Shown piece by piece: positions 59 to 23,484 of a DNA stretch of 64,000 nt. The notes beneath the pieces were generated by a model, which saw only the letters and a list, made by a program, of their open reading frames with translations, was not told the DNA's origin and did not search any database. Positions within the stretch are counted from its first letter, which is position 1. Each line of letters begins with the position of its first letter. This DNA comes from an uncultured Fibrobacterota bacterium (lineage in GTDB: Bacteria > Fibrobacterota > Fibrobacteria > Fibrobacterales > Fibrobacteraceae): NCBI GenBank assembly GCA_903876665.1, contig CAIRAY010000147.1, positions 1-64,000 on the forward strand, read 5' to 3'. The position numbers and the translations under genes are program-made.

Positions 59-3000
59 TTATTTTTTCTCCCCAAGGTACATGCACCGAACAAAAGAGCG
101 GGTGACCCCATCTTCCCACCAGTACTCCAATATTATGTTTGCCTTTTGCTCCCTTAATATCCATTCCACGTTACCCACCCTCTTGAATGGCCACCATTCA
201 ATCGAAGGGATAGCTTCATTTTCTTCATAATCCACCTCTGAAATAGAACCGTCCACGGACATCCGCGCCTTCCAGCCTAAACCCAAAGCAATGCTCACAA
301 TATCATTGTGCAAGGACTCCCCTCGCAGGTTTCCAATATTTGGTTCTGGACTGGGTGGCAACACCCGGGCAAAAATTGTTTGTTCAGTGGAACGAAAGGT
401 TGAAACTTTATAGATATCAGAGTTCTGTACTTCACGAGCCCAAACTTGAGACGCATCACGGTAACCCCATTTTGGATTACCACCGAATACGTAATAGGCA
501 CCAGAATTGTTGATTGAACTTCCGACAAATGCCCTTACAACTACTATTTGCCCACTATCAGGACTTAACGAATCTTCAGCCTGCTTTAAAACATTGTGCA
601 CAATTGGCCAATAGACAATAGAACTAGCCCCCACCTCGGTCATTGCCGGAGCAATAATCTCCGCCGACACCCCATACCTCGCTACGGATACATCCAAATA
701 GTGAACCCCCTCCGGCACCCATTTCAGGTCATCACACATCCCATCCCAGTGAAGAATACTTGTTCCAAGAGTCTTGGCACCCAAGGCTTTGATGCACACA
801 ACCACATTGTCGAGATTGCGGATCTTCAGGGTCACCTCAGCGGTCATATTCAGGTCCAGGCTAACGCTGACCCGCTTCGTTGCATCGGCCAATGCCGCCG
901 GGTATTCCAGCGCTCCCGTAACAACCACATTGCTCACCGTGAGCGCAGCCAAAATGACATTCACCGTTTCCGCAGTCGTATTTCCAACAGCGTCGCTGGC
1001 GGTCTTGGAAATTGCAAAACTTCCTGCAGGCAGAGCTGGTGTTATTGTCTCGGAAAACGGAACGCCGTCAACGGTTCCCGAAACCGGAATGTCAATACTT
1101 CCAACGGGGAACACCTCTCCCGCAGTGGGCGAAGTGATCACGACCACCGGTGGCGTACGATCCACCACAAAGGTCTTGGTCGCTCGTCCCCAGCCACCAT
1201 CAATCGCCAGAACCTCGATTTCATGGGAACCATCCTGCAATGCGGAAATATCCAAGGACGCAGAAAAGGATGTTTGTGCCCCTGTTGGCGTCAACGTTTC
1301 CTTCAACTCGCCATCGATCAATATTTTTACCTGACTCGCCTTGGGCGATAACGAGCCCGCAACGGTCAGCAAATTTTCTTTGGTGACCGAGGCCGTTGGT
1401 GATGTTATGGTTATGGAAGGAATTGTTCCGGAATTGTAGCCGACCAGTCCACCTCCAGCCCCAAAATCCTTGGAGCCTATCTTGCCATACACCTTCACCA
1501 TTTTTTCCATCGCCGAATCCGGATACCAGAGCGCAGTATATCCGTATCCTGCCGCTAAATCCCTTGCGCCCCAAGCCTGAACGCTAGTTGCTGTCTTTAA
1601 TGGGTTGGCATCGCCAAGCGCTCCCGTGGAGTTGTCCCCATAGATGTCCACACGGTTGAACTGGTATAAATACTGTGTATTTTCCGGGTCGTCTGGGTCT
1701 TCAACAGTGTTCAGAAAGTGGTAACCGTCCGATAGCGGGTGCTGATATGGAGAAAGAAATCCGCCCTCAAACATGGTGGCAAAATGGCTGATCCCCGCCG
1801 ACATCAGGCTCAGTCTCGAAGCGCCGCTCTGTAGACCAGTCATGCCTGTTCCCCACCAGACGGTCCGAACCACAGTCTGTGCAGGTCTCAGCCGATGCGA
1901 GACGCCAAAATCCCGCCCGGAAGCAAGCAACCGCGAAACCGGCATTTCGGTTATTGACGAGGAAGGGTTTTCGTAGGTATTCATGAATCCTTGGAATGTT
2001 CGGCGCCCTATGGCATGGGTCAATTGGTCTGAACCATAGGTGCACCCCGTTCTTGCTGTGCCTGGTTTATAATCCCAAGACAAATCGGAGCACACCCCTT
2101 GGGGAATCAAAAGCTGGGCCCTGTCGTTTGCACCCCAGGTCCAAAGCCTCTGCAGGCTGTCAAGTCCAAGGGAATGGGCGCGTCCCGCTGCCACAGCAAA
2201 AAGTCGGACCGTATTTTCGCCCTCGGCGGGCATGGTGAGAAGCTCAGGCTGAGACCCATCGGCAACAAGCGGAGTCGACCCGCTCGCAAGACCAAGCTGC
2301 CCCTCGTCTCCACGACCCCAAACCCAGGTCCGGTTCGATTCATCGATGGCAATGTTGTGTGCAGTTCCGGCGACGATGTCCTTGATAATAATGCCCACAG
2401 GAAACACAACTTTAACCGGCACATCCGAGGAATCCCCAGCATTGGAATTCCCAAGCTGACCTTCGCGGTTGTCACCCCAGGCCATCACGGTACCATCCAC
2501 CATCAGGGCAAGCGAATGCCTTGCGCCAGCGGCCACCGAGCGCACGTTACCCACGACCCCCATTACCTGGATCAGGGAATCGGACCAGACGCGCCCCGGG
2601 TCGGGGAACCCCAAGCGTCCCTGTCCGTTGCTTCCAAAGGATAGAACTCGGGTATGAGTTGTTGAATTCTCCACCAATGAATCAAGGACCACCACATGGG
2701 AATCCCCTGCGGAAATGCTGCGTGGCATTATGGTTACTCCAACCATTGCTGGAGAGAACTTGGAAGTAACCACATGCACGGCGCCGTCATAGCTCTTGAT
2801 CTCCAGAGCCTGCCATTCCTGGGCCGTGGAGTCAAAGCGGAAGGCCTTGACCTGTTCCTTGGAATATCTTTTTGGTTGGTAGTCCGGCATGGGGAGGGCC
2901 ATCTCGATAGTGGATCCCGGAGCGATGTCGGCATGCACCTGGAAGTACCCACCCGAGCGCAGGAAGTCACGGCGGAGCAGTTCGGGCTTGCCGCTTTCAT

Positions 3001-4705
3001 TGCCCAGATATCGGATGGTGGGGACTTCGTTGTTCACCAGGGTTCCCGGAGCTACGGATACCGCAATTCGGGTTCGCGTTCCATAACCCGGGATTTGATC
3101 GAAGCGGTATTCAACATATTCAGGCTTAGTGATTCCCGAAAAATCCACGCGGTCAGGCACTCCCACCAGTGGCGCATCGTTTGCGTTGTGGGGATCGCTT
3201 CCGACCTGGCGCTCCACCGCATCTGGGATCCCGTCGCCATCGCTGTCGTTGGTCCATGGCCCCTGGCCATATACAATCAGGCCGTCGGAGGTCACCGTGA
3301 CCTTGGGATTGCCCGCTGTGTTGCCGGTTCCGGCCCAAGACCAGTCGTCGGTGAAATTCACATTGCCCCAGTCCTTGGAGGCGATGCGGACCTGCACCTC
3401 GCGCGTTGCGCCAATGGGCAAGAGACCTTCGCCCAGCGCTACCGTGAACTGCACCCGACGGTCCTTCTGTGTCGTCCTTGAAATGGTAGTACCAGGAACT
3501 TGGGACCAGTCGATCAGGCCGATCAACGGCTGTTCGCCAGCAAGGGTGTCCGCATGCCAGTTGAAGCGGACCCGGCGCAAAGGAACCTCGCCCGTATTGG
3601 TCACCAGGCAGGTGAGCCACAGGGTGTTGTCCGTCCTTTGGGTCACGGTGGTGTTGACCTTCGCTTCCTGTTTGGCCGTGGTAGGGAAAGGAAGGCGCGG
3701 GATTTCGGAAACCAGGTTCTGAGCGTGCCTGCGCACCGTCACGCCATTGTTGACGCCACCTGTCACCGTGGGCATAGCTATCCACGATGGGTCGTTAGTG
3801 CGGTTAATCGCGGTATAGTCCTTGACATGCATCCGCAGGTGCACCACCGCTGAATCGCCCAAATTCAGTGTCACTGGAATCCGCATCCATACCGTTCCGC
3901 TGAAGTCATCCCGGGCTTCTACGGTCCCTGTGACCCCGGCAAGGGAGGAGTGGTCGATCTCGGGTTCCAGCTCGTCCGAATGGTCGGCCCAGTTGAAGTG
4001 CCAGCCGATCTCCGGGGCATCAAGAGGAACTGTGCCTGCGTTCTTGACCGTCAGGGCCACGGCATACCAGTTGACGTTGCTTCCGATCACCGAAGCCGTC
4101 ACCACGGGCATGGGAACCAGGCCCAGCGAGGCGGAGGACAACATTTTGGCAGATGAGCTGGAAGTAAAAATGCCCGAAGATGAAGCCACGGATGAGGACG
4201 ATTGAGCCAAGGAGGGTGCGAGGCTTGAAGATTGTTGAGTCGTTTCCGTCCACTGGATGCGGTCGAAGGAGCATAGGCGGTTCCATTCCGCGGAATGCCC
4301 GTAGCCCACTCGCCCTGTGGCGTGGGTGGCATCATTGATTGTCGCCACAGAATCTCCATTAAGGAATACTTTAAATTCGTTGCCGTGCATGACGATGCGG
4401 AGGTTTACGTTGGACGCGAGCGGAACATCTTTTTTGCCCAGGGGCGAACAGCTGGCCATCCCATCGACGCAGAAAAAGACATGCGATTCCCATTGGTTTG
4501 CGGGTCGCACTCCGACGAAGTAGAAACTTGACTGATTGGTGTAGCGGAATACTGCGCCACCCCGGTGTCCATTCCAGATGTCGGCGACCAAGTCCATTTC
4601 AAGCGTACCGTCCGGTGCCGTGGCATCGGTGCGCAACAAGAATCCGTTCTGCCCGGAACCGTTGGCGGGCAAGGCCATTCCGCCAACTTCGCTCCAGGGG
4701 CGCAT
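59..4705 (-). CDS. Very large secreted multidomain surface protein: N-terminal LamG/concanavalin-like domain, two CBM/CARDB-like beta-sandwich domains, a TSP3-like DSDGDG calcium-binding motif, RCC1 (beta-propeller) repeats, bacterial Ig-like domains. The annotated ATG lacks a signal peptide. The true N-terminus probably lies upstream, reaching about 4845 through a homopolymer frameshift.
   Basis: Single 1548-aa ORF. RCC1 signatures are VMAWGDNREGQLG, VWGRGDEGQLG, TWGANDRAQL and HSLAL/HNIAI. It carries a DSDGDGIPDAVE motif and Ser-rich linkers. Reading upstream in the same frame gives KALIAFLFCAFLGAAPVHSA, a typical signal peptide, but without an in-frame ATG. Confidence 0.8.
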   Translation of the reverse strand: MRPWSEVGGMALPANGSGQNGFLLRTDATAPDGTLEMDLVADIWNGHRGGAVFRYTNQSSFYFVGVRPANQWESHVFFCVDGMASCSPLGKKDVPLASNVNLRIVMHGNEFKVFLNGDSVATINDATHATGRVGYGHSAEWNRLCSFDRIQWTETTQQSSSLAPSLAQSSSSVASSSGIFTSSSSAKMLSSASLGLVPMPVVTASVIGSNVNWYAVALTVKNAGTVPLDAPEIGWHFNWADHSDELEPEIDHSSLAGVTGTVEARDDFSGTVWMRIPVTLNLGDSAVVHLRMHVKDYTAINRTNDPSWIAMPTVTGGVNNGVTVRRHAQNLVSEIPRLPFPTTAKQEAKVNTTVTQRTDNTLWLTCLVTNTGEVPLRRVRFNWHADTLAGEQPLIGLIDWSQVPGTTISRTTQKDRRVQFTVALGEGLLPIGATREVQVRIASKDWGNVNFTDDWSWAGTGNTAGNPKVTVTSDGLIVYGQGPWTNDSDGDGIPDAVERQVGSDPHNANDAPLVGVPDRVDFSGITKPEYVEYRFDQIPGYGTRTRIAVSVAPGTLVNNEVPTIRYLGNESGKPELLRRDFLRSGGYFQVHADIAPGSTIEMALPMPDYQPKRYSKEQVKAFRFDSTAQEWQALEIKSYDGAVHVVTSKFSPAMVGVTIMPRSISAGDSHVVVLDSLVENSTTHTRVLSFGSNGQGRLGFPDPGRVWSDSLIQVMGVVGNVRSVAAGARHSLALMVDGTVMAWGDNREGQLGNSNAGDSSDVPVKVVFPVGIIIKDIVAGTAHNIAIDESNRTWVWGRGDEGQLGLASGSTPLVADGSQPELLTMPAEGENTVRLFAVAAGRAHSLGLDSLQRLWTWGANDRAQLLIPQGVCSDLSWDYKPGTARTGCTYGSDQLTHAIGRRTFQGFMNTYENPSSSITEMPVSRLLASGRDFGVSHRLRPAQTVVRTVWWGTGMTGLQSGASRLSLMSAGISHFATMFEGGFLSPYQHPLSDGYHFLNTVEDPDDPENTQYLYQFNRVDIYGDNSTGALGDANPLKTATSVQAWGARDLAAGYGYTALWYPDSAMEKMVKVYGKIGSKDFGAGGGLVGYNSGTIPSITITSPTASVTKENLLTVAGSLSPKASQVKILIDGELKETLTPTGAQTSFSASLDISALQDGSHEIEVLAIDGGWGRATKTFVVDRTPPVVVITSPTAGEVFPVGSIDIPVSGTVDGVPFSETITPALPAGSFAISKTASDAVGNTTAETVNVILAALTVSNVVVTGALEYPAALADATKRVSVSLDLNMTAEVTLKIRNLDNVVVCIKALGAKTLGTSILHWDGMCDDLKWVPEGVHYLDVSVARYGVSAEIIAPAMTEVGASSIVYWPIVHNVLKQAEDSLSPDSGQIVVVRAFVGSSINNSGAYYVFGGNPKWGYRDASQVWAREVQNSDIYKVSTFRSTEQTIFARVLPPSPEPNIGNLRGESLHNDIVSIALGLGWKARMSVDGSISEVDYEENEAIPSIEWWPFKRVGNVEWILREQKANIILEYWWEDGVTRSFVRCMYLGEKK

Positions 4706-4820
4706 GCCTGCGGTGGTGAATCCCGAGAGCGATCCATCGGAATGGTCGTCGGTGAATGATGCGGAATGTACGGGTGCCGCGCCTAGGAAAGCGCAGAATA
4801 AAAACGCAATTAGGGCTTTA

Positions 4821-4828
4821 GGGGGGGG
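4821..4828. repeat. Homopolymeric G8 tract (C8 on the coding strand of the giant surface-protein gene). It places the upstream ATG (about 4843-4845, minus strand) at +1 relative to the signal-peptide frame. It is a candidate slipped-strand phase-variation switch, or a homopolymer sequencing error.
   Basis: The minus strand reads atggcacataaattgct-CCCCCCCC-taaagccctaattgcg. With 8 C the ATG frame stops after 11 codons (MAHKLLPPLKP*). With 9 C it reads MAHKLLPPPKALIAFLFCAFLGAAPVHSASFTDD... in frame with the 1548-aa ORF. Confidence 0.6.
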
Positions 4829-4926
4829 AGCAATTTATGTGCCATAGGGACGCAAAGATAAAAAAACAACGTTCGAAATGGAGTAAAAAGGAACTAACCA
4901 TCCATTCTTTTATCCATGCGCAAGGA

Positions 4927-5625
4927 TTATTTCGTCAGAAACCAGATCGCCCCTGCGAACGCGAGAACCCCAACGGCCTTACGGGCCCAAACAATCCAGC
5001 GACCCATGCCCCGTACATGAAAAATGGGCAGGATCCAAGTAGATGCCATTCCGGCAAAAACGATCACCGAGCAATGTCCAAGGGCGTAGGCCAAAACCAG
5101 GCCTGTCGCCAATAAAGGCCTTGTTGCCACCGAATCGAAAACTAGCCCTAGCACCGGCATGATGAATGCGAAGGCACATGGCCCAAGAACCGTGCCAAAT
5201 AAGCCACCCAGCAATAATGCGGCTCCAAGACCCCTACCCTTGAAGCGTTCCTGGCTCGACAAGGTATACGCAGGAATATGGATTACATCTAAAAGAAGAA
5301 GACCGACCAGGGCAAATATCAGCGCCCCAAGCCAATTACTCCATGGCCCCACATCGCCAAAAATGCGGCCCAACATTCCCGTAATCAAACCGAGTACCAC
5401 CATACTCACCAGGATTCCAAAGGAAAATACGGCCGAAAGCACAAAAGCCCGGACCGGAGTGCCACCACTTTGTTTGGCTACAAACCCCATCACCAACGGC
5501 ACGCTGGCCAGGTGACAAGGAGAGAGGATTACGCTCGCGATACCCCACAATAGGGCACCGGACACCGCCACCCATGGGCTTGCCCACATCATTTCCGAAA
5601 GGCGGGTCAGAATATCCAGGATCAC
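4927..5625 (-). CDS. ccdA: Cytochrome c biogenesis / disulfide-reductant transmembrane protein (CcdA/DsbD transmembrane-domain family)
   Basis: 232-aa polytopic membrane protein with the SPCHLASVP motif and a second conserved Cys region typical of CcdA. Its stop overlaps the start of the upstream Trx-like gene. Confidence 0.8.
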   Translation of the reverse strand: MILDILTRLSEMMWASPWVAVSGALLWGIASVILSPCHLASVPLVMGFVAKQSGGTPVRAFVLSAVFSFGILVSMVVLGLITGMLGRIFGDVGPWSNWLGALIFALVGLLLLDVIHIPAYTLSSQERFKGRGLGAALLLGGLFGTVLGPCAFAFIMPVLGLVFDSVATRPLLATGLVLAYALGHCSVIVFAGMASTWILPIFHVRGMGRWIVWARKAVGVLAFAGAIWFLTK

Positions 5626-5969
5626 CGGCGGACTCGCTTGGATGCTAGGATTTTTTCCAGCTCACTTTGCGGAAAAAATCCTTCGTGTCTAAAGAATTCC
5701 TTGCCTGTGGAATCCAAAAATACTTGTGTGGGAATGGAGCGAATCTTAAATTTTTGGGCCTCGGGTTTTCCGGCCGGGGTCCAGACATCGTGGAACACAA
5801 TTTTTAGATCTTGCCGGTATTTAATTTCCAATGAATCCATGATTTTTTTCATGGCCCGGCAGGGAATGCAATTCACCGAACCGAGCTCCACAAAAGTCAC
5901 TTTGGGCTCAGTGGCAAGGGCTTTTGTGGCTAAGCATAATAGAAGCAAAAAGATATGAATCAATTTCAT
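5622..5969 (-). CDS. Periplasmic thioredoxin-like thiol-disulfide oxidoreductase (TlpA/ResA-like), the likely partner of CcdA
   Basis: 115 aa. Signal peptide MKLIHIFLLLLCLATKALA, CIPC (CxxC) active-site motif, and a 4-bp overlap with ccdA. Confidence 0.7.
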   Translation of the reverse strand: MKLIHIFLLLLCLATKALATEPKVTFVELGSVNCIPCRAMKKIMDSLEIKYRQDLKIVFHDVWTPAGKPEAQKFKIRSIPTQVFLDSTGKEFFRHEGFFPQSELEKILASKRVRR

Positions 5970-6025
5970 TTTCCCATCCTATCATCGTCAATGGTATTGC
6001 GACATGCAAAGAATTTATGGATTTT

Positions 6026-6099
6026 GATGCCCGGCTTTCCTGTCATGCTGGCTTTCCTGTCATGCTGGCTTTCCTGTCATGCCCGGCACGGGCATGACA
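6026..6099. repeat. Intergenic repeat locus A. It holds three tandem 17-bp units (gctttcctgtcatgcYg) ending in a perfect palindrome tgtcatgcccg-gca-cgggcatgaca at 6075-6099 (subtype I of the ATGCCCG-N3-CGGGCAT family).
   Basis: Read directly from the sequence. It lies between the Trx-like gene (ends 5969) and the redox-active disulfide protein 2 gene (ends 6143), both on the minus strand. Confidence 0.85.
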
Positions 6100-6142
6100 A
6101 ATTCATTCGCACATTTAGCGACATTTTTAGTAGGTATATCCA

Positions 6143-6376
6143 TTAAATCAGGTATTCCTTCAATGCTTCCGCCTTTAGCACTTTCCCAGAAAACATGACT
6201 TTTCCATCCACCACCAGGGCAGGCGTGGTCATCACACCAAAGACCATAATTTGTTTGTAATCAGTAACCTTTTCCAGCTGGATTTCAACGCCCAAAGCAT
6301 CCGCAGCTTTTTGGACTTCCTCCGCAAGGATGATGCATTTGCTACAGCCGCCGCCGAGAACTTGGATTTTTTTCAT
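6143..6376 (-). CDS. Small thioredoxin-fold protein, redox-active disulfide protein 2 family (TM0996/MTH895-like)
   Basis: 77 aa with a GGGCSKC motif near the N-terminus. This family is classically encoded next to ArsR and a PF03773 permease. Confidence 0.75.
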   Translation of the reverse strand: MKKIQVLGGGCSKCIILAEEVQKAADALGVEIQLEKVTDYKQIMVFGVMTTPALVVDGKVMFSGKVLKAEALKEYLI

Positions 6377-6397
6377 GGTGAGCTCCTTTTGAATCTT

Positions 6398-7435
6398 TTA
6401 CAACAACGCATTAAACAAATACCCAACCAGCATGATGCCACAAGCCACGGTGCCAAAGAATATCCCCAGCAGTTTGGGCTTCAACACTTTGCGCAATAAA
6501 ATGGCCTCGGGAAGGGACAAGGCAATCACCGCCATCATAAAGGCAAGGGACGTTCCTAATGCGGCCCCTTTTTCCAGCAAGGCCGAGATGATGGGCAAAA
6601 TCCCAGCGGCGTTGGAATACATGGGAACACCCAGTAGAACAGCAAGGGGCACAGACCACCAGGAACCCGCTCCGAGGATTTTCACAAAAAAATCCTGAGG
6701 CACATAGCCATGAATTCCTGCGCCCACAGCGATGCCCAGAATGACCCACATCCAAACTTTTCCGACCACTTCTTTGACCGCATCACGACCCGCCAGAATC
6801 CTTTCGCCCCAGCTCATTTTTGCATCTTCACCGGTTGTGCCGCCCCGAATTTCCCATACCCAGTCTTCGACCAGATGATCCAGCTTGACGCGGCCCAATA
6901 CATAGCCCGCGAGCATGGCCACCGCAAGGCCGGTGCCCATATAGAGAGCTGCCACCTTCCATCCAAACATCCCAAAAAACAGGACTAATGCCACTTCGTT
7001 GACCATGGGGGCGCTGACCAGAAAGGAAAAGGTTGCGCCCAGAGGTACGCCTGCGGAAAGAAAGCCAATAAACAAAGGCACGGCAGAGCAAGAGCAGAAT
7101 GGTGTCACCGTACCTAGCAATGCCGCCATGGCATTTCCGGTAAAGGCTCCGCGCCCCTGAAGCATTTTCCGGGTCCGTTCGGGAGAGAAAAATGTGCGAA
7201 TGATCCCGACGCCAAAGACCACGGAAACCAGCAGCATCAACACCTTGGGGGTGTCATAAAAGAAAAATGCCAGGGATTCAAAGGCCCGGCCCCCTGCAGG
7301 GAGAAAAGAAAATTGACCGGACAAGGCCTGCACGGTCAAATGCGACAAGGCTTCCAAATTCCAATAAAGAGAGACCCAGGCCATTATGCCTGCGAGCCCC
7401 AGAGACCAATGAATAATGAGCTTCCCCTTCATCAT
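6398..7435 (-). CDS. Permease of the PF03773/DUF318 family (ArsP-like putative organoarsenical/thiol efflux permease)
   Basis: 345-aa polytopic membrane protein containing TPFCSCSAVPLF, the vicinal-Cys TPFcSCS motif characteristic of ArsP-type permeases. It overlaps arsR by 4 bp. Confidence 0.7.
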   Translation of the reverse strand: MMKGKLIIHWSLGLAGIMAWVSLYWNLEALSHLTVQALSGQFSFLPAGGRAFESLAFFFYDTPKVLMLLVSVVFGVGIIRTFFSPERTRKMLQGRGAFTGNAMAALLGTVTPFCSCSAVPLFIGFLSAGVPLGATFSFLVSAPMVNEVALVLFFGMFGWKVAALYMGTGLAVAMLAGYVLGRVKLDHLVEDWVWEIRGGTTGEDAKMSWGERILAGRDAVKEVVGKVWMWVILGIAVGAGIHGYVPQDFFVKILGAGSWWSVPLAVLLGVPMYSNAAGILPIISALLEKGAALGTSLAFMMAVIALSLPEAILLRKVLKPKLLGIFFGTVACGIMLVGYLFNALL

Positions 7436-7788
7436 GCCCCTTGGTCAATGCAATTGAAAAACCCCAAAATGCAGGGCATGGATAATTTGTAAAATACTTT
7501 GAGCCCGCGCTTGTCGTCCTCAATGAGGCCGGCATGGCGGAGTACCGCCAAATGCCTACTGACGGTGGACATGTCGGTGCCCACCACGGGGGCAATTTCG
7601 CAAACACAAGTTTCGCCTTGGGTCAAGAGTTCCAAAATTCGAATGCGCGAAGGATGCCCCATGGCCTTGAAGATGCTGGCACGACGCTTGATCACCGCCA
7701 GGGAGGTTGGCATTTTTGCCGGTTGCACAATGGCACATTCTGTGGCCGACTTGGCTGCATTTTGTTTCATATTTGCAAATATACGCAA
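7432..7788 (-). CDS. arsR: ArsR/SmtB-family metalloregulatory transcriptional repressor. The track start is TTG at 7788; a more likely start is the ATG at 7768-7770, giving MKQNAAKS...
   Basis: HTH region IFKAMGHPSRIRILELL, a metal-site ETCVCEIAPVVG (CVC) motif and the downstream DNA-recognition helix region. Confidence 0.85.
   Translation of the reverse strand: MRIFANMKQNAAKSATECAIVQPAKMPTSLAVIKRRASIFKAMGHPSRIRILELLTQGETCVCEIAPVVGTDMSTVSRHLAVLRHAGLIEDDKRGLKVFYKLSMPCILGFFNCIDQGA
7769..7782. promoter_or_regulatory. Perfect 14-bp palindrome ATATTTGCAAATAT abutting or overlapping the arsR start codon. It is a candidate ArsR operator for autoregulation.
   Basis: The palindrome is read directly from the sequence (catATTTGCAAATATacgcaaatac), with an adjacent partial repeat gcaaata. 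ArsR/SmtB repressors typically bind AT-rich inverted repeats that overlap their own promoters. Confidence 0.4.
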
Positions 7789-7934
7789 ATACTTTCTAAA
7801 ACGTCCACCCCAATTTTTTCTTCATCTATAGGATTCCGTGCGGGCCCTGGAATTTGGCGAAGCGCAAGTGGTACGGGACTTAGGGTGAAGGATTCTATAT
7901 TGGCAGGGAAAATCCTTTTTCAAGTGATTCCTCC

Positions 7935-8744
7935 ATGATTCGATTGTTCCCCATTCTTTTTATCCATTTCATTGCGTCTAACCTTTGGGCGCAGACTACC
8001 TCCCCTACCCCGAAGAAGCCAAACATTGCCGTCCTGAATTTCTCAGGAGATGCTACGGTTACACCCGAGCAGCTGGCGTTCATAACGGGTGAATTTGCCT
8101 CCGAATTAACCCGATCCGAAGCCTTTACCGTGCTGGAACGTAGTCGAATGAAGGATATTCTCCAGGAACAAAATTTCCAGCAAAGCGAAATTTGCAATTC
8201 GAGCGAATGCAAGTTGCAAATGGGTCAAATGCTTGGAGTGGACAACCTGGTCGTCGGAAGCATGGTACGCTTTGGCCCCAACTACGCCTTTCGAGTTGAA
8301 TACTTGGATGTTGCCACTGGGGTCATTTTAAAAACCGTGAGTTTTGAAAAGACTGGTGAATTGCATCAGGTGTACCGCACCGCATGCCAAGAAGGAGCAT
8401 CGGCCCTGGGGCGCTTCGCAAATGGACTGCCAGATTCGGTGACGACCCCATCTTCAACGACTCCCGTTGTTTCCTCTACATACAAACGCCCGGGATGGAA
8501 ATTCCCTGTCTTGGCGGGATTGGCCCTAGGCGGAGTGGTGTGCGGAGTGGCTGGCTTGTTGGAGCATCAAAACATGACAGCAGAGCGCAAGACTTACAAT
8601 AATGCGGATTACACCGGACGGCCTGTGACCGAAGCTAACGCACAATGGGACAAGGTTGTCTCGGCCGAAAGCGCGCGGAATATTTTATGGAGCGCCGGAG
8701 CGGGCCTTCTTGCGGCTGGGCTCGTGGTACAATTCGCCTTCTAA
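7935..8744 (+). CDS. Secreted membrane-anchored protein with a CsgG/LpoB/FlgO-like fold and a C-terminal TM segment
   Basis: Signal peptide MIRLFPILFIHFIASNLWAQ. The pattern NIAVLNFSG...ERSRMKDILQEQ...ECKLQMGQMLGVDNLVVGSM resembles CsgG/LpoB-type domains. A hydrophobic stretch lies near the C-terminus. Confidence 0.45.
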   Translation: MIRLFPILFIHFIASNLWAQTTSPTPKKPNIAVLNFSGDATVTPEQLAFITGEFASELTRSEAFTVLERSRMKDILQEQNFQQSEICNSSECKLQMGQMLGVDNLVVGSMVRFGPNYAFRVEYLDVATGVILKTVSFEKTGELHQVYRTACQEGASALGRFANGLPDSVTTPSSTTPVVSSTYKRPGWKFPVLAGLALGGVVCGVAGLLEHQNMTAERKTYNNADYTGRPVTEANAQWDKVVSAESARNILWSAGAGLLAAGLVVQFAF

Positions 8745-8756
8745 GGAAAAACAGAA

Positions 8757-9623
8757 ATGAAAACTTCAGCGAAATTTTTAACCCGTTTTGGCGTGTTGTG
8801 TGTAATGTTGATCCTGGCCTGCGACGGAGCCGGGCTACGCGATAACCCCACAGACTCCGGAGCAGTCGGCTACCCAGAAAGCTCGGCCCAGGCATCATCG
8901 GCCCAGGTATCTTCAGCCCAGTCCTCGTCAGCACAGGGGTCATCTTCGCCCGTTTCCTCTTCCCTGAATTCATCGTCCCAGGCTTCTTCGTCAACCCCTT
9001 CATCGTCCCAGGTTTCCTCATCCACATCCTCGTCCTCGTCGCAAGCGTTGCCATCCTCTTCGAGCCTAGTTCTTTCTTCCTCCTCCAGCGCATCCTCCTG
9101 CAGGGATTCCGACCCTTCGGGTTCCGTGACGGACTGCCGAGATAGCATTGAGTATAAAACAACCACCATCGGCGGAAAAGTTTGGATGGGTGAAAACTTG
9201 CAATTCGCTCCCTCAACTGGTTCAACCTGGTGTTACAAAGATTCCATCGCCAATTGCGGGAAATTTGGTCGTTTATACGATTATGCCACCGCAGAAACCG
9301 CGTGCATGGAAGGTTGGCACTTGCCAACTAATGTCGAGTGGAGCCAATTGGCTAGTGATGCCGGTGCCAATCTCAAATCAACACAATGGAACACCAACTC
9401 CATTCCAAGTTCTGATTCCTATAAGTTTTCCGCAATAGCGGCACCCTTCTTGGACTCACTTCCTCAATTCCAAAATTTGGATAATGCTTTTTGGTGGGCA
9501 GCCACCCCATCCGCTACTGGAGCAAATAGGGATATTCGATGGATGGCCGGTGGTTCTGCCTCTCTTGGCTCAAGTTCCCGACTGATGTCTTATGGTCTTT
9601 CGGTGCGGTGTATTCAGGATTAA
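8757..9623 (+). CDS. Lipoprotein with a Ser-rich linker and a C-terminal Fibrobacter succinogenes major paralogous domain (TIGR02145-like)
   Basis: Lipobox LILAC, SSAQ-type Ser-rich low-complexity linker, and a domain with WMGENLQF...WCY...C...RLYDYATAE...VRCIQD ending at the C-terminus. Confidence 0.8.
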   Translation: MKTSAKFLTRFGVLCVMLILACDGAGLRDNPTDSGAVGYPESSAQASSAQVSSAQSSSAQGSSSPVSSSLNSSSQASSSTPSSSQVSSSTSSSSSQALPSSSSLVLSSSSSASSCRDSDPSGSVTDCRDSIEYKTTTIGGKVWMGENLQFAPSTGSTWCYKDSIANCGKFGRLYDYATAETACMEGWHLPTNVEWSQLASDAGANLKSTQWNTNSIPSSDSYKFSAIAAPFLDSLPQFQNLDNAFWWAATPSATGANRDIRWMAGGSASLGSSSRLMSYGLSVRCIQD

Positions 9624-9630
9624 AAGTCTG

Positions 9631-10671
9631 TCAAGGCGCGGGATTCGAATGGCGCTGATGGATCGCGTCAATTCCGGCAAGAACTTCGGCCGATAAAACC
9701 ACATCGAGGCTAGCGATATTCTCCCGAAGCTGCCCGAGCTGGGTCGCCCCAATGATGGTCGAGCGGATGAATACTCGGGAGTTCACGAAGGCTAGGGCCA
9801 TCTGGGCAGGAGACATTCCGTGGGCACGGGCGAGGGCCGCGTATTCCCCCGTAGCAAGGATCGCCTGAGGTGAGGAATACCGCTTAAAGTGAGTACCAAA
9901 CAGATTCAGGCGTGAAGAGGGCAATGCGCTTCCTTCCTCGTACTTTCCACTGAGCCTGCCAAAGCCCATGGGAGAATACGCCAGGAACCCAACATCCTCT
10001 CGGAAGCAGACTTCGGCCAATGCCACCTCAGCGCTGCGGTTGATCAGGCTATAGGGATTTTGCAGGGAAACCGGCGCGGGCAAGCCCAGCTCCTTGGCCA
10101 GCCACAGGTACTTCATGAGCCCCCAGGCGGTCTCGTTGGAGACTCCGAAGTGGCGAATTTTTCCGGCGCGGATCAGATCAGCGGCCGCACCCATTGACTC
10201 TTCCAGTGGCGTCCAATACTCGTGCTGGGGACCATCAAAGCCAAGCTTGCCAAAGAAGTTCGCGCTGCGGTCGGGCCAATGGAATTGGTATAAATCGATA
10301 TGATCCGTCTTCAATCGTTTGAGCGAGGCGTCACAAGCCGCAAAAATACTTTCGCGCCGGAGTCCATTATGGATGCCGTTGCGAACCCAAGGATGGCCTG
10401 CACTGTGTCCGATCACTTTGGTGGCCAGAACCACCTGGTCACGCTTGCCCGATTTTTGGAACCAGTTCCCAATAATGGTTTCGGTTGCGGTGTAGGTCGC
10501 TTCCATAGGCGGAACCGGATACATCTCGGCCGTGTCCCAGAAATTCACCCCCAAGTCAATGGCTAAATCCATTTGGGAAAAGCCTTCGTCCTGTGTATTC
10601 TGCTGGCCCCAGGTCATGGTGCCGAGGCAGATTTTGGAAATTTCGAGGGAGCCGAGGTGTATTTTTTGCAT
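9631..10671 (-). CDS. Aldo/keto reductase family oxidoreductase (Tas-like, NAD(P)H-dependent)
   Basis: The 346-aa ORF shows AKR motifs: CLGTMTWG and FWDTAEMY. Confidence 0.85.
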   Translation of the reverse strand: MQKIHLGSLEISKICLGTMTWGQQNTQDEGFSQMDLAIDLGVNFWDTAEMYPVPPMEATYTATETIIGNWFQKSGKRDQVVLATKVIGHSAGHPWVRNGIHNGLRRESIFAACDASLKRLKTDHIDLYQFHWPDRSANFFGKLGFDGPQHEYWTPLEESMGAAADLIRAGKIRHFGVSNETAWGLMKYLWLAKELGLPAPVSLQNPYSLINRSAEVALAEVCFREDVGFLAYSPMGFGRLSGKYEEGSALPSSRLNLFGTHFKRYSSPQAILATGEYAALARAHGMSPAQMALAFVNSRVFIRSTIIGATQLGQLRENIASLDVVLSAEVLAGIDAIHQRHSNPAP

Positions 10672-10673
10672 GT

Positions 10674-11630
10674 TCAGCTATGCGTGATGAGGAAGTGTTC
10701 AGCCTCGAGGGCGGCCATGCAACCCGAGCCTGCCGCGGCAATGGCTTGGCGATATTTTTTGTCTTGAACATCACCGGCAGCAAAGACTCCTGGAACGCTG
10801 GTTTCCGTGGTACCCGGAGTGGTGAGGATGTAACCGGTTTCATCCAAATTCAAATGACCGGCAACAAAGTCCGTATTGGGTTTGTGTCCGATTGCATAAA
10901 ATAGACCTGCCACCGGAAGTTCGGTCACCTCGTTGGTCACCACGTTGCGAAGCTTGGCAATTTCAAGGGACTTGGTGCCCGAAAGGCTTTCGAGGACGGA
11001 ATTCCACACCACTTCGATTTTTGGATTGGCAAATACTTTCTCTTGCATGGCTTTGGATGCGCGGAAAGAATCACGACGGTGCACCAGGTATACTTTGGAT
11101 GCAAACTTCGACAAATGCGTGGCTTCTTCCATGGCTGTATCGCCACCGCCAATCACTACCGAAGGCTTATTGCGGTACATGGGAAGCGCCCCATCGCATA
11201 CGGCGCATGCGGAAACGCCGCGTTGCCAAAATTGCTGTTCGCCGGGAACACCCATGCGACGCGCCGTGGCACCTGTGGCAATCACCACCGCATCGGCTTC
11301 AAAAAGTTCATCGGACTCGTTCCAAATTTTAAATGGACGGGAAGAAAAATCCACTTTGGAGACTGTCTCGGTGCGAATCGTTGCGCCACAATGTTCGGCC
11401 TGCTGGCGCATGCGCAGCATCAACTCACTTCCGTCAATACCCTCCGGAAAACCAGGGAAATTTTCAATTTCCGTGGTGGTGGTCAATTGCCCACCCGCAG
11501 CGACGCCTCCGGCCATGAACCCCTCAAACATCAAGGGCTTGAGCAAGGCCCGGCCCAGATAAATTGCCGCTGTATGGCCCGCAGGCCCCGAACCGATCAC
11601 GATGACTTTTTCTGACATAGGATTCTCCAT
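10674..11630 (-). CDS. trxB: Thioredoxin-disulfide reductase
   Basis: FAD-binding [10 protein letters not shown], the redox-active CAVCDG motif and an NADPH-binding [10 protein letters not shown] motif, about 318 aa. Confidence 0.9.
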
Positions 11631-11723
11631 AGTTTCACTTCAATGTAACAATCTGTCCATATCCTTCGCCCCTTGATCGGACAGAATGTGTATAAGGGAT
11701 GCCTAATCATCTATTTTCACAAG

Positions 11724-12062
11724 ATGAGCCAACTTCTTTGCGTGACGCCTGCCGATTCCCCCATTGGAGAAATCCACCATTTTGAAATACTCTGGAAGGG
11801 CATGAAAATGCCCGGCCTCGCCTTTCTGGATCGCCAGGGCAGCTGGTTTGCCTGTATCAATCGCTGCAAACACTGGGCTGAAGCCTTGGATACCGAAAGC
11901 CCGGCAATTTATGCCACGGGTACCGGCTTGGTCGTGTGCTCCATCCATGGGGCAAAATTCCGCCTGGAAGATGGCCTTTGCGTAACGGGACCCTGCCACG
12001 GATCTGCGCTGGATGTCATTCCCGTAGAATGGCGAGAAGGCGAACTTTGGTCGATAAAGTAA
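11724..12062 (+). CDS. Rieske [2Fe-2S] domain protein. The ORF is open from 11673; the start at 11724 (MSQLL...) is preferred.
   Basis: CKH ... CSIHGAKF ligand boxes (CxH / CxxH) in a protein of about 112 aa, which is typical Rieske ferredoxin size. Confidence 0.55.
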   Translation: MSQLLCVTPADSPIGEIHHFEILWKGMKMPGLAFLDRQGSWFACINRCKHWAEALDTESPAIYATGTGLVVCSIHGAKFRLEDGLCVTGPCHGSALDVIPVEWREGELWSIK

Positions 12063-12193
12063 ATTACCCGCAGGTCATTTATGAAAAAACAAGACCCCCG
12101 ATGAGGCCGCTGGGGTTTCCCAAGGGACCAGAGAGCACGGTGGACCGGGCACCCTGGGAACCCGTCCATGCGGAATGAAATGGGAGTGACTCG

Positions 12194-12964
12194 TTAAAAT
12201 TTTAATGCGACTTGCAAGCCTGGGGCAAGGCTTCCCTCTGAAATCGGAATTACCGAGGGACTCACAGACAACTTGAGGTTTCCGTATGCATTGTGAGCTC
12301 GGATGCCGCTAGCCGTAAATTGGTACAACGCCATTCCGTGGGCTAGGACACCCAAACAAACAAGGATCCCCCCACTGACCGCTGCTAGCTTGGCATCCGA
12401 GTCACTCCCACCATCTGACCCGGGTATAGCTGCAAGGGCCAGCAATCCACCTCCAATAGCTAGGCAACCCCAGCTGGATTGGTAAAGTCCCCATCCGGGA
12501 ACACGGACAAGGGAATCCTGGCCCAACGCGTTTACAGATCTGGTCATCATGTTGGCTCCTATCCCATTTACGGGAATACCCGCAAGTAGGGTAAGGACCC
12601 CTATCCATAAAGAGGTTTGGCGATAATTTTCATGATCAGAAAAAGCCATAATTGTTCCACCCACATTCATTCCCAGTCCAATGATTTGAATGCCCGAACC
12701 CAAGGCAAGCTTCATTTTCAAATTGAAAATTTCGCTTTGGGTTAATGCAACGACAATTTTTGGCTTCAATATATTGCCGTTCCTGCCTGAAACACTTTGT
12801 GTGTCAAGTATCTGCGATCCCCGTGCCGGGGATGCCCCTTCGACCTCGTTGACTGTTATAATTGCCGGAGCATTTCCATTCAATTGTGAAGCATCTACTG
12901 TGTCAATGGACACTTCAGCAGTACACACCGTTTGGATGATGAGAATCAGAAAAATACACATAAA
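12194..12964 (-). CDS. Hypothetical Gly-rich secreted/membrane protein (possible outer-membrane protein, C-terminal ...LQVALKF). The track ORF extends to 13099 across palindromic repeats; the start at MCIFLILIIQTVCTA is preferred.
   Basis: Signal-peptide-like N-terminus, Gly/Ala-rich hydrophobic segments, and a C-terminal aromatic residue. Confidence 0.4.
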   Translation of the reverse strand, partial: FMCIFLILIIQTVCTAEVSIDTVDASQLNGNAPAIITVNEVEGASPARGSQILDTQSVSGRNGNILKPKIVVALTQSEIFNLKMKLALGSGIQIIGLGMNVGGTIMAFSDHENYRQTSLWIGVLTLLAGIPVNGIGANMMTRSVNALGQDSLVRVPGWGLYQSSWGCLAIGGGLLALAAIPGSDGGSDSDAKLAAVSGGILVCLGVLAHGMALYQFTASGIRAHNAYGNLKLSVSPSVIPISEGSLAPGLQVALKF

Positions 12965-13000
12965 ACATGCGCTAGTCTTTCTAGCACCTTTGTTAATTAT

Positions 13001-13080
13001 GCGGCATGAACCTGTCATGCCCGGAACGGGCATCGCCGTGCATCTACCAGAGTTCTGTGATGCCCGTGCCGGGCATGACA
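13001..13080. repeat. Intergenic repeat locus B. It holds two members of the palindrome family: tgtcatgcccg-gaa-cgggcat (13014-13034, subtype I) and tgtgatgcccg-tgc-cgggcatgaca (13056-13080, subtype II).
   Basis: Read directly from the sequence, downstream of argJ on the minus strand. Confidence 0.85.
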
Positions 13081-13100
13081 ATCCAAAAACATTCTGCATG

Positions 13101-14309
13101 TTAAGTGGTGTATTCGGCGTTGATCTTCACGTAGTCATAGCTCAGATCGCAGGTGTAGCTGGAGGCGGAAGAATCGCCCATATTCAAAACCAAAGTGATG
13201 CGGTATTCCTTGCGGGCCACGACTTCGCGCAGGCGGGTGTAGTCCACATCCAAGGGCCTTCCACCCCGCAGGACTTGAACATCCTCGAAGAAAAGATCCG
13301 TGCGGTCCGCAATCAACTCGCCGCCTGCGGAACCCGCGCTGGAAAGAATGCGACCCCAATTGGGATCTTGACCAAACATGGCGGTTTTGACCAGGTTGGA
13401 GGTACATACAAAGCGTCCGATTTTGCGGGCGTCGTCTTTGCTCGTGGCCTTTTCTACGCGGATCTCGACCATACGGGTTGCGCCTTCGCCATCACGGACA
13501 ATCATCAGGGCCAGCTCAAGCATCACCGATTCAATAGCGCGGCGGAATTCGCCTTGCTCGGAAAGGGAAAGGTTGTGATAGCTGATGCCCGATGCACCGT
13601 TTGCGAGTAGAATGCAGGTATCGTTGGTGCTCATGTCGCCATCCACGGAAATGGCATTGAAGCTCTCGTTCACCCAGGCTTTGAATTCCGGGCGGAAGGT
13701 GGGCGGCAATTCGATGTCGGTGGTGATGTAGGCAAGCATGGTGGCCATATTGGGATGGATCATCCCGGAACCCTTGCAGGCCCCGCCGATGCGAATTTCG
13801 CCTTCGCTGGTGGTCAGCACCGCGCCCAGGGTTTTCATCTTGGTGTCCGTGGTCATGATGGCCCGGGCAAAAGCCTCGGAACCCTCGTGGCTCAAGGCCT
13901 CGTGGACGGCAGGCACAGCCACTTCGATTTTTTCGATGGGAAGCTTGCGGCCAATGATCCCCGTGGAGCAAACCAGCACGGAATCCTTGCCGAGCCCCAG
14001 AGCGCTTTCGGCCACCTGCGCCATGCGCTTGGCATCCGCCCAACCGTCCGGACCCGTGCAGGCATTGGCATTCCCGGAATTGACCAGTACCGCAGAAATC
14101 CGGTCGGAACGAGAAAGAACTTCCTGATCATAAAGGACCGGAGCGGCCTTCACTTGGTTGAGGGTAAAAACGCCAAAGCAGCGCGCCGGAACATCGCTCG
14201 CCAGGAGTGCCAGGTCATGATTGCCCGAGGCCTTGATTCCAGCTTTGACTCCGGCACCCCGGAATCCCTTGGGAGTACAGACTCCGCCATTCAATTGCAT
14301 TTCTAGCAT
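13101..14309 (-). CDS. argJ: Bifunctional glutamate N-acetyltransferase / amino-acid acetyltransferase (ornithine acetyltransferase)
   Basis: 402 aa with the autoproteolysis site ATMLAYITTD and the conserved ArgJ core. Confidence 0.9.
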   Translation of the reverse strand: MLEMQLNGGVCTPKGFRGAGVKAGIKASGNHDLALLASDVPARCFGVFTLNQVKAAPVLYDQEVLSRSDRISAVLVNSGNANACTGPDGWADAKRMAQVAESALGLGKDSVLVCSTGIIGRKLPIEKIEVAVPAVHEALSHEGSEAFARAIMTTDTKMKTLGAVLTTSEGEIRIGGACKGSGMIHPNMATMLAYITTDIELPPTFRPEFKAWVNESFNAISVDGDMSTNDTCILLANGASGISYHNLSLSEQGEFRRAIESVMLELALMIVRDGEGATRMVEIRVEKATSKDDARKIGRFVCTSNLVKTAMFGQDPNWGRILSSAGSAGGELIADRTDLFFEDVQVLRGGRPLDVDYTRLREVVARKEYRITLVLNMGDSSASSYTCDLSYDYVKINAEYTT

Positions 14310-14346
14310 TTTTCGCTCCGATCAGGTTTACTACCTTTAGCATTAT

Positions 14347-14817
14347 ATGGACGCAACAATCCCGGTTACCCAAGAAACTCTCGACCAGCTTCAGGCTGAG
14401 CTCGATAATTTAAAAAAAGTAGAACGCCCCGGCGTGATCCAGGCAATTGCCGAGGCTCGCTCCCATGGCGATCTCAAAGAAAATGCGGAATACCACGCAG
14501 CCAAAGAGCGCCAAGGCTACATCGAAGGGCGCATCCAGTATGTTGAGGACCGCATCGCCCGTTCGGTGGTGACGACCCACAATACAGCGGCGGCGGCCCA
14601 CATCACCTTTGGCGCCACGGTCAAGGCCAGGAATCTCGGCACCGGAGTTGAGGTGGAATATACCTTGGTTTCTCCCGATGGCATGGACCCCCTGAAGGGA
14701 CGTATTTCCTACACCTCCCCCGTGGGAAAATCCCTGATCGGAAAAAGTCGTGGCGAGATTGTCGACATTACGACACCTAAAGGCATCACTCGCCTCGAAA
14801 TCCTCGACTATCGATAA
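14347..14817 (+). CDS. greA: Transcription elongation factor GreA
   Basis: 156 aa with the N-terminal coiled coil and the [14 protein letters not shown] acidic-finger motif. Confidence 0.9.
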
Positions 14818-14823
14818 GAAACC

Positions 14824-15789
14824 ATGATCCGCGTATTCCTGGGTGACGACGACTTTTCACGTATCCGCGCGCTAAATCGCGCAGTGGATTCTGCACTGGG
14901 TGCCCGCAAGGATGATCCCTTGGCGCGTCAAGTGTTATACGCCGGAGACTCCTCCTTTCCCGATGTTGCAGCCAAAGTGGTCGAATTCTGTAGCTCCATT
15001 TCCATGTTTTCCCCGGAGCTTGCGGTTGTCCTTCGCCGGGTGGAGGCCCTGAAGGCCGTTGATCAGGAATACCTCTCCAAATGGTTGTTGACCAAGCCCG
15101 AATGCCTGCTCTTCATTGACGGCGCAAAGATTGACGGCCGTAGCGAATTTTCCAAAGTCCTCGCCAAGGTCTGCAAGATTGAAAAGTTCGAGCCTCCCAA
15201 GGATTACAAGATGGCGGAGTGGATCACCAACCACTGCCGCGAAGAATTCTCCCGGCCAATCCAGCCCGAGGCCGCCAAATACTTGGCAGATGCCATTGGC
15301 GATGAATTGTCCGTTCTCCATAGCGAAATCGAGAAGCTACTCACCGCGGTGCCCGACACCAAAACCATTAGTTTCGATCTCGTTTCCCGCCTAATCGTTC
15401 CTCAACGCATTTTGGTTCCCTGGGAAATCCAGAAATCCTTCGGCGACCGCGACCCCAAAGCCTTCACCCAGATGCTCCGGCGCTTACTGGACCAAGGGAT
15501 TGATCCGATCCCCATTACCAGCAACCTGTTCACCCACGCCGTCAAGCTGATGCACACCCAGACCATGATCGCAGAAAAGCGTTCTGCGGACGAAATTGCC
15601 AAGGCGCTTGGCCTGCAAACATTTTTATACAACATCCAAAATCTACCTACCCAGGCTTCCAAATGGACTCCCGCAGTCCTTTCCCGGGTCATCCAGAGAC
15701 TCGGTGAAATCTACTTTGGGCTAAAAGCAAGTGCCTACGCCAACGACGCAGAATTTGAGCTTGCCGTTTGTGCCTTGGTCGTGCGGTAA
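14824..15789 (+). CDS. holA: DNA polymerase III delta subunit
   Basis: 321 aa with N-terminal Rossmann-like and C-terminal helical domains in a HolA-like pattern. It lies immediately downstream of greA. Confidence 0.65.
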   Translation: MIRVFLGDDDFSRIRALNRAVDSALGARKDDPLARQVLYAGDSSFPDVAAKVVEFCSSISMFSPELAVVLRRVEALKAVDQEYLSKWLLTKPECLLFIDGAKIDGRSEFSKVLAKVCKIEKFEPPKDYKMAEWITNHCREEFSRPIQPEAAKYLADAIGDELSVLHSEIEKLLTAVPDTKTISFDLVSRLIVPQRILVPWEIQKSFGDRDPKAFTQMLRRLLDQGIDPIPITSNLFTHAVKLMHTQTMIAEKRSADEIAKALGLQTFLYNIQNLPTQASKWTPAVLSRVIQRLGEIYFGLKASAYANDAEFELAVCALVVR

Positions 15790-15826
15790 ATCCTCAGCTC
15801 AATTTTTTGCCGTGGTTTTGTTGTCT

Positions 15827-16057: not shown

Positions 16058-16146
16058 CTTTAAAAACATCCTGTTTGCATTTTAATGCGTTTGCCCTGAG
16101 GTAAATCCTTCTATTTTCCCATTTCCTGCACTTCTTTTTATCTTTT

Positions 16147-17805: not shown

Positions 17806-17810
17806 GATTC

Positions 17811-19622: not shown

Positions 19623-19637
19623 TCCACAGGTAAGACC

Positions 19638-22796: not shown

Positions 22797-22809
22797 TCCT
22801 CAGCTCCCA

Positions 22810-23481: not shown

Positions 23482-23484
23482 AAT

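Follow-up and report, generated by a model that had tools for sequence, protein, structure and literature searches.

Short hairpin-forming, REP-like repeats with one-sided half-site arrays in Fibrobacterota

What kind of element is the GC-rich palindrome ATGCCCG-N3-CGGGCAT, which recurs in the DNA of an uncultured Fibrobacterota bacterium, and how is it processed and multiplied? The stretch analysed, hereafter the window, comprises the first 64,000 nucleotides (nt) of contig CAIRAY010000147.1 (assembly GCA_903876665.1). The palindromes do constitute a repeat family, whose short members form hairpins and resemble the repetitive extragenic palindromes (REP) of other bacteria. With a probability of about 0.7, they form a Fibrobacterota-specific family of the REP class, of the kind tagged with CGTC or TGTC and similar to the NTS repeats of Neisseria. 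The kind itself is known; new are its presence in this phylum, a sequence that the published search pattern does not cover and arrays of half-sites on one side of the element. CGTC-tagged hairpin repeats are widespread and have no associated transposase. The assignment would extend the class to Fibrobacterota through a sequence that the published pattern misses, and surveys using that pattern probably undercount such repeats. Clusters of these repeats also break short-read assemblies and generate spurious open reading frame (ORF) calls.

The core ATGCCCGNNNCGGGCAT has five exact matches in the 64 kb of the window, at 6079, 13017, 13060, 15882 and 23490, and none in 100 dinucleotide-preserving shuffles of it. 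The recurrence of this 7+3+7 palindrome had been noticed in the original prediction, with coordinates right within a few bases. With up to two mismatches to the core, nine matches are found against 0.46 expected. Two doubly compensated variants, ATCCCCGTGCCGGGGAT (12817-12833) and ATGGCCGTTCCGGCCAT (15940-15956), remain perfect palindromes. The first of them had been predicted as a CCCC variant; it exists, some 10 nt away from the position proposed for it (12826-12844), and lies inside a predicted ORF instead of between genes.

The repeat unit is a single asymmetric element of 25 nt, TGTC-ATGCCCG-GCA-CGGGCAT-CAC(A/C). It is found in the forward orientation at 6075, 13013, 15878 and 16014 and in the reverse orientation at 12837, 13080, 15960 and 23510. 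The two subtypes proposed earlier collapse into this element, since the reverse complement of TGTGATGCCCGTGCCGGGCATGACA (type II) is TGTCATGCCCGGCACGGGCATCACA (type I). The general design, of approximately 25 nt, comprises an unpaired (T/C)GTC tag, a GC-rich stem of 7-8 base pairs (bp), a loop of 3-4 nt and an unpaired tail that starts with C. Six of the eight elements in the window, and 17 of all 23 tabulated, have TGTC as their tag (one has CGTC and two have GGTC), and DNA folds leave the tag unpaired in most copies. The copies are singletons, inverted dimers with the tags outside, or tandemly reiterated clusters, and the eight window elements lie within 18 kb. A covariance model built from 13 elements and run unfiltered over the entire window recovered seven copies at 30 bits or more, all between 6 and 24 kb. 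Rfam at its gathering threshold and a tRNA scan found nothing in the window.

The motif is not restricted to the window. Two further contigs were found through a protein-database search with peptides encoded by the spurious ORFs that run across the repeats. The first (L075, 660 bp, from the same sequencing project) carries five to six elements with the stems ATGCCCG, ATGGCCG, ATCCCCC and ATCCTCG. The second (L076, 9.8 kb, 54% GC, from another sample) carries Fib_succ_major genes and resembles the window only in its repeats. It holds four full elements at three loci: 2000-2110, with five half-sites and a GGCC-variant element; 8555-8735, with six half-sites and a tag-outside dimer; and 9491-9549, with two half-sites and a perfect palindrome. 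The L076 dimer (8668-8735, 68 nt) is 92.6% identical to the dimer of the window at 13013-13080 (locus B), spacer included; the dimer thus recurs as one unit at loci that are otherwise unrelated.

Wider scans gave no further members. A genome collection scanned with TCATGCCCGGNACGGGCAT returned at least 54 matches, mostly single and unrelated, the pattern being too short. The 21-mer TGTCATGCCCGGCACGGGCAT occurs three times in Bifidobacterium minimum LMG 11592 (L033 at 7860, L035 at 158 and L040 at 1883). Each of these copies lies within a longer multi-copy repeat that is identical or nearly identical over at least 260 nt; they were rejected as family members, and the 21-mer is there probably the end of an insertion sequence, alike by coincidence. 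A metagenome scan with the 21-mer gave three matches, all unrelated singletons, and two scans of viral contigs for the repeat gave no match. Neither the genome-collection scan nor the metagenome scan recovered the source genome itself.

The ArgJ homologues with a source name belong to metagenome-assembled genomes of Fibrobacter, Fibrobacteraceae or Fibromonadales, the nearest being 87% identical to the ArgJ of the window, and Fib_succ_major domains are present in the window. The argJ region was compared in eight related lineages, in none of which the exact palindrome was found. Elements of the same design are present in two relatives. In the first (L062-L064, ArgJ 82% identical) they read TGTC-ATTGCGGC-TTG-GCCGCAAT-CTCAC and CGTC-ATGGCCGC-TTG-GCGGCCAT-CTCAC. 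In the second (L065/L066, ArgJ 69% identical) they read TGTC-ATTGCCC-GAAG/CGTT-GGGCAAT-CTCAC, and one pair is placed directly downstream of holA, the position of locus C in the window. The stem has 7 bp in the window species and in L065 and 8 bp in L062-L064. The window species has a 3-nt loop (GCA or GAA) and a tail that reads CAC(M) or CGC(M), the relatives a loop of 3-4 nt and the tail CTCAC.

Across these species the changes in the stem compensate each other, and the unpaired tag and the tail's first base remain constant. When 13 elements are aligned, pairing in the five outer stem pairs reaches 96.9%; shuffles give 77% and a slid partner 20-43%. The value of 96.9% is partly circular because most of the elements came from a search for perfect stems. 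Sequence similarity led instead to the variants at 12817 and 15940 and, in L065, to the copies at 13560 and 13603. In 12 cells of the alignment both sides have changed and two positions covary (GC/UA/CG and CG/GC/AU). All stem changes are Watson-Crick, with zero G-U intermediates. Twenty-two elements were scored for arrays, tag, stem start and tail, with the weak candidate at 30514 excluded. Stem pairs 1-2 are A-T and then T-A in 13 of 13 aligned and 22 of 22 scored elements. The GTC of the tag is kept in 20 of the 22, and 19 have a C as the first base past the stem, in three species with differing stems, and the alignment columns G6, T7, C8 and C28 are at least 90% conserved.

To which known repeats do these features point? 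In the survey by Di Nocera, De Gregorio & Rocco (2013, BMC Genomics 14:522, PMC3733652), REPs are sorted into GTAG-tagged and CGTC-tagged superfamilies, and the latter includes dRS3 of Neisseria (CGTC-1) and RPE-4 and RPE-6 of Rickettsia. TGTC is a frequent variant of the CGTC tag and CCTC is accepted too. The stem has 8-9 bp, almost invariably with complementary A-T residues at positions 1-2, the loop has 4-5 nt and the tail is a trinucleotide close to CCA. Dimers with the tags outside (HH) predominate, and clusters reiterate the dimers together with flanking DNA. The repeats are located past 3' ends, between unidirectional or convergent ORFs, some being intragenic, and the authors found no transposase gene flanked by CGTC-type repeats. 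The repeats of the window are alike in the tag, the A-T/T-A start of the stem, the short loop and the unpaired tail. The tags face outwards in both dimers of the window and in that of L076, the sites are at 3' ends with one intragenic copy, the clusters reiterate dimers and flanking DNA, and no transposase gene is adjacent.

The elements also resemble the Neisseria Transformation Sequence (NTS). The NTS, CGTCATTCCCGCGMAVGCGGGAATCYRG (consensus CGTCAT...ATC), is a single-stranded DNA hairpin bound by SsnA, a GIY-YIG nuclease of 94 amino acids (aa) that cuts a few nt upstream of it; cleavage depends critically on the three bases that precede the palindrome, and binding on the C that directly follows it (Chenal 2025, Nat Commun 16:2388, PMC11893778). 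The Fibrobacterota elements share the frame YGTCAT-[stem]-[loop]-[stem']-ATC with the NTS and the Ssn-related motifs (SRM). They are likewise oriented, and copies cluster non-randomly near some genes. The unpaired positions on which SsnA depends are exactly those that the Fibrobacterota elements keep as their stems diverge.

Besides the partial circularity of the pairing, several points weigh against this assignment. The stem of 7-8 bp is at the lower edge of the range of the CGTC-tagged REPs or just below it, the loop of 3-4 nt and the tail CAC or CTCAC deviate slightly from theirs, and Fibrobacterota is absent from the five phyla reported for them. The elements of the window and of both relatives fail the published degenerate SRM search pattern, HGTCWYN(0-2)YYVSBRHN(0-5)WNVSBRGN(0-2)RNCYNB. 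This pattern was run as a regular expression, with NTS and NTSvar matching as controls, and its one match in the window, at 43571 (-), is unrelated. In five of the relatives no copy was seen within 10-21 kb each. The copy counts cover the window and the fetched contigs. Finally, no GIY-YIG gene (cd10448-type, approximately 94 aa) was found in the window or in approximately 273 kb of related loci.

The original prediction of a lineage-specific family resembling REPs and bacterial interspersed mosaic elements (BIME) agrees with the dispersed copies, the 3'-end sites, the alternating dimers and clusters and the compensated stems. The REP, BIME and REPIN elements (REPIN being REP doublets that form hairpins) of E. 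coli and Pseudomonas are also short, imperfect, 3' intergenic palindromes, with dimers folding into long hairpins, clusters of alternating orientation and lineage-specific families. Could the repeats be classical REP/REPIN elements, with the 68-nt inverted dimer as the mobile unit of a REP-associated tyrosine transposase (RAYT, a Y1 transposase of the IS200/IS605 type)? Inverted dimers whose spacer is conserved at two unrelated loci are indeed REPIN-like, and the clusters resemble BIMEs. However, the E. coli and Pseudomonas REPs have a GTAG tag and a Y1 transposase gene flanked by REPs, whereas the tag here is TGTC or CGTC and GTAG adjoins no copy. Neither the scanned window ORFs nor the genes tabulated for the related loci (approximately 273 kb) showed a Y1_Tnp domain; RAYTs are usually single-copy, and absence from 273 kb is weak evidence. 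The lack of transposase genes flanked by CGTC-type repeats in the survey of Di Nocera et al. (PMC3733652) also stands against this proposal. A RAYT partner, as suggested earlier, is therefore improbable. The NIMEs of Neisseria are alike in that tagged hairpins are interleaved with other short repeat units, as in L075 and at locus C. They differ in consisting of segments of 50-150 bp flanked by dRS3, whereas here the interleaved units are tandem copies, 17-21 nt long, of the tag and the left arm.

The 12-nt half-site TGTCATGCCCGG has eight exact occurrences in the window. Arrays of one to six tandem units precede 11 of the 22 scored elements on the tag side and none follows on the tail side, and one-sided arrays recur in three species. 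Each unit consists of the tag, the left arm and a mostly pyrimidine spacer of 5-8 nt. Units are identical within a locus, and the spacers differ between loci (CTTTCC, TTGTTT, CTGTCTT, TAGTCT, TTCAGCT), with a period of 17-19 nt depending on the locus and of up to approximately 21 nt in L065. The units always match the stem variant of the full element that they adjoin, private changes included (GCTGG at locus A, ATGGCCC in L076, ATCCCCC in L075). Their number differs between assemblies, and the predicted proteins of the L076 locus from different assemblies also suggest differing numbers of units. Being identical within a locus, different between loci and copies of the adjacent stem variant, the units point to a local and recent tandem amplification seeded by the element. 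The arrays are best read as such locus-specific amplification, and not as independent insertions or as a conserved binding array.

An iteron-like binding platform had been proposed earlier. On such a reading, a regulator or a replication protein would bind the arrays and palindromes as double-stranded DNA, in the manner of iterons or operators; in its favour, the 12-nt half-site is present both in direct repeats with a period of 17-19 nt and in inverted pairs. This reading is extremely improbable, given that spacers (CTTTCC, TTGTTT, CTGTCTT, TAGTCT) and periods (17, 18 and 19 nt) change with the locus, that the units copy the stem variant of the neighbouring REP and that the copy number varies between assemblies. 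In addition, the sites follow genes and do not adjoin promoters or an origin. Genes for a replication initiator or a cognate regulator are absent nearby, and the GC skew has no switch in the window.

What would recognise such an element? The unpaired flanks are conserved while the stem co-varies, and judging from this sequence pattern a protein with sequence specificity probably recognises the element in the form of a single-stranded DNA hairpin. The Ssn single-strand nuclease, described in 2025, is the only known protein partner of CGTC-tagged repeats. A single-domain GIY-YIG nuclease of the Ssn type, cutting a few nt 5' of the tag, is accordingly put forward as a tentative candidate, possible rather than probable; it is proposed by analogy with the NTS and SRM repeats. 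No gene for a GIY-YIG or Y1 protein came to light in a search that covered, with Pfam, approximately 50 window ORFs and the small ORFs beside the repeats of the relatives; for GIY-YIG it also comprised a crude six-frame motif scan and tblastn with three GIY-YIG queries. A faint GIY-YIG match beside the L065 repeats (E = 5.7) was dropped, having no Pfam support. A RAYT partner is less likely than an Ssn-type one. A matching nuclease, if found, would be a candidate site-specific tool for single-stranded DNA with a new specificity.

The two subjects, arrays and partner, may be connected. The arrays probably arose through slippage between repeated left arms, possibly begun by a nick upstream of the tag, or through repair following such a nick. 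Tag-side half-site arrays are not mentioned in the part at hand of the Di Nocera survey (PMC3733652), nor in Chenal 2025 (PMC11893778). The half-site stutters could be traces left by the processing or propagation of CGTC-type hairpin repeats, through Ssn-like nicking and resynthesis or slippage, a reading that is unlikely. A Fibrobacterota single-strand nuclease similar to Ssn, with a specificity outside the published SRM pattern, would then nick a few nt 5' of the tag. Subsequently, hairpin-dependent resynthesis or slippage would duplicate the segment between the nick and the stem-loop junction. If true, this would give a first mechanistic handle on the change and spread of repeats that have no transposase, and would define a new specificity class of Ssn. 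Arrays that are regular, one-sided and matched to the stem variant in three species are a by-product able to constrain the mechanism.

The positions of the repeats might point to a different role, at the level of RNA. Gene neighbours were assigned from gene calls and Pfam matches, and those named earlier (a disulfide protein, argJ, holA and the zinc-ribbon/histidine kinase pair) agree with Pfam. As predicted, the intergenic copies are at gene 3' ends: the four loci lie 4-43 nt past stop codons, three in a unidirectional and one in a convergent gene arrangement. The hairpins, stable as RNA, might primarily be cis-acting elements, either terminators or 3' stabilisers against exonucleases, with the shared sequence as a by-product of duplication. 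E. coli REPs stabilise the upstream mRNA (see also PMC3733652). On the other hand, no copy is followed by a U-tract (the T-run of a terminator in the DNA), and a scan of 5000-24900 called 31 terminator-like sites, equal to the 27.8 expected from shuffles, with zero repeat copies among them. The relatives carry canonical U-tract terminators downstream of argJ and holA, so the hairpin terminators proposed originally find no support. The unpaired GTC and C are kept across species while the stem changes without G-U intermediates, both orientations relative to transcription occur, one variant is inside an ORF, and half-site arrays contribute nothing to a terminator. A primary role as RNA elements is thus quite unlikely. 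With a DNA hairpin repeat of the CGTC-tagged kind, effects on RNA such as a 3' hairpin, stabilisation of the mRNA or weak attenuation would come second.

The individual loci of the window are built as follows. Locus A starts with a forward half-site array (6023-6074), in which a degenerate unit, TTTGATGCCCGG+CTTTCC (6023-6040), precedes two identical 17-nt units, TGTCATGCTGG+CTTTCC (6041-6057 and 6058-6074), on the tag side of the full element. Both 17-nt units differ from the full element by one and the same CC-to-T change and therefore arose by local duplication. Tandem Repeats Finder (TRF) reports 6033-6082 with a period of 17, 2.9 copies and 100% matches; together with its result at locus C, this agrees with the tandem half-sites of period 17-18 noticed earlier at both loci. 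The full element is a forward singleton (6075-6099), TGTCATGCCCG-GCA-CGGGCATGACA, with a perfect 11-bp stem, a DNA fold of -13.0 kcal/mol (z = -6.5) and a covariance-model score of 34.6 bits. It lies 43 nt past the stop codon of a Thioredoxin_3 gene (6143-6376, -) and 105 nt ahead of the start of the next thioredoxin gene (5969).

The compensated variant on the reverse strand (12813-12837), GGGC-ATCCCCG-GCA-CGGGGAT-CGCA, has a degenerate tag and scores 30.2 bits. It is intragenic, in a predicted ORF of 255 aa (12194-12961, -) where it would encode ...SPARG..., and both of its arm changes (G to C and C to G) preserve the pairing. The inverted dimer of locus B (13013-13080) begins 20 nt past the argJ stop codon and is composed of a forward REP (13013-13037), an 18-nt spacer and a reverse REP (13056-13080), with the tags outside. 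It folds as one long hairpin of -46.2 kcal/mol (z = -6.5).

Locus C is a cluster of repeats. Its forward half-site array (15830-15877) begins 40 nt past the holA stop codon with a partial unit, followed by two copies of TGTCATGCCCGG+TTGTTT (15842-15859 and 15860-15877); TRF reports 15830-15889 with a period of 18, 3.3 copies and 97% matches. Then comes an inverted dimer (15878-15960), again with the tags outside, formed by a forward REP (15878-15902) and a reverse GGCC-variant REP (15936-15960), with covariance-model scores of 36.7 and 37.1 bits. This variant and its dimer had been missed in the original prediction. The fold of 15835-15965 is a single long hairpin of -56.5 kcal/mol. The dimer belongs to a higher-order unit of 136 bp, which has at least two tandem copies in L055, L068 and L070, independent assemblies of the same organism that are 99.97% identical; the window contains one full copy and a partial one. 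Several independent contigs terminate within the repeats of this locus.

The cluster ends on the forward strand (15996-16057) with one half-site unit (15996-16013) and a hairpin with a long loop, TGTCATGCCCGGCAC-N14-GTGCCGGGCCTGACA (16014-16057). This REP-derived hairpin contains the spaced variant at 16020-16051, which is as described earlier, and ends 89 nt ahead of the pepA start; the fold of 15990-16065 has -32 kcal/mol. Its right arm reads GGGCCTGACA at 16048 of the window and GGGCATGACA, with perfect pairing, at 8086 of L055. In sequences otherwise 99.97% identical, this difference is either a polymorphism or an assembly difference within the repeat. The gene directly downstream of the cluster encodes a PepA homologue (M17 leucyl aminopeptidase, 16147-17805, +), whose C-terminal segment of approximately 60 residues carries three AT-hook-like repeats, (K)RRGRPPK, a basic tail unusual for the PepA enzyme family.

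Locus D is a reverse singleton (23486-23510), TATC-ATGCCCG-GCA-CGGGCAT-CACA, that scores 34.6 bits. It occupies the 60-nt gap between convergent genes, where the zinc-ribbon gene stops 4 nt and the histidine kinase gene 31 nt away from it. A weak, possibly diverged copy is seen on the reverse strand at 30486-30519, TGTC-G-TCCCCC-GAAG-GGGGGA-TTACC, with 18.1 bits and an E value of approximately 0.008 by a rough calibration. It is intergenic, approximately 13 nt past the stop codon of a 159-aa ORF (30532-31011, -), and is the only intergenic candidate of the covariance model outside 6-24 kb. The covariance-model matches at 634-666 and 17492-17524, both intragenic, were treated as chance; at the second, the DNA codes for HLDIAGTA, a conserved motif of the M17 peptidase. 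The first, on the forward strand inside a 1548-aa ORF (59-4705, -), reads GTCATTGC-CGGA-GCAATAATCTCC and scores 20 bits. It is closer to the L065-type element (GTCATTGCCC...GGGCAATCTCAC) than to the window type, and is either a relic or a product of chance.

The gene order around the repeats was compared between the window and L060, L062, L065 and L071-L074. The holA-greA-argJ block (13101-15789 of the window) is kept in all eight relatives, and the flanking genes differ in every lineage. Both boundaries of the block carry repeat clusters in the window, which places the repeats at breakpoints of synteny. Aconitase and an M24 peptidase come directly after argJ in one relative; in the window they are 17 kb away (31008-34492). 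The 82% relative also has, near its hairpin elements, intergenic tandem runs of a TTGAGAG-like heptamer (gagagttgagaattgaaaattgaaagttgagagttgagag; L062 at approximately 6480-6560 and L064 at 61-100), which are a different, simple repeat.

Other observations concern the Fib_succ_major genes. In the window, a 704-aa gene (47369-49483) contains direct repeats of 66 nt and 300 nt (48086-48503 and 48872-49289), 79% identical and 786 nt apart, which correspond to its two Fib_succ_major domains. A DUF4423 gene followed by a gene with a CarboxypepD_reg domain is an arrangement found twice, at 46491-49483 and at 53339-55407, and the first copy of the pair additionally has the Fib_succ_major domains. 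In L076, a Transposase_31 gene (2286-3173; YhgA/Rpn-like nuclease) begins 175 nt past a repeat array and is adjoined by a diversity-generating retroelement (3130-5395; RVT_1 reverse transcriptase and bAvd). The retroelement is embedded among genes with Fib_succ_major domains, which may be its targets.

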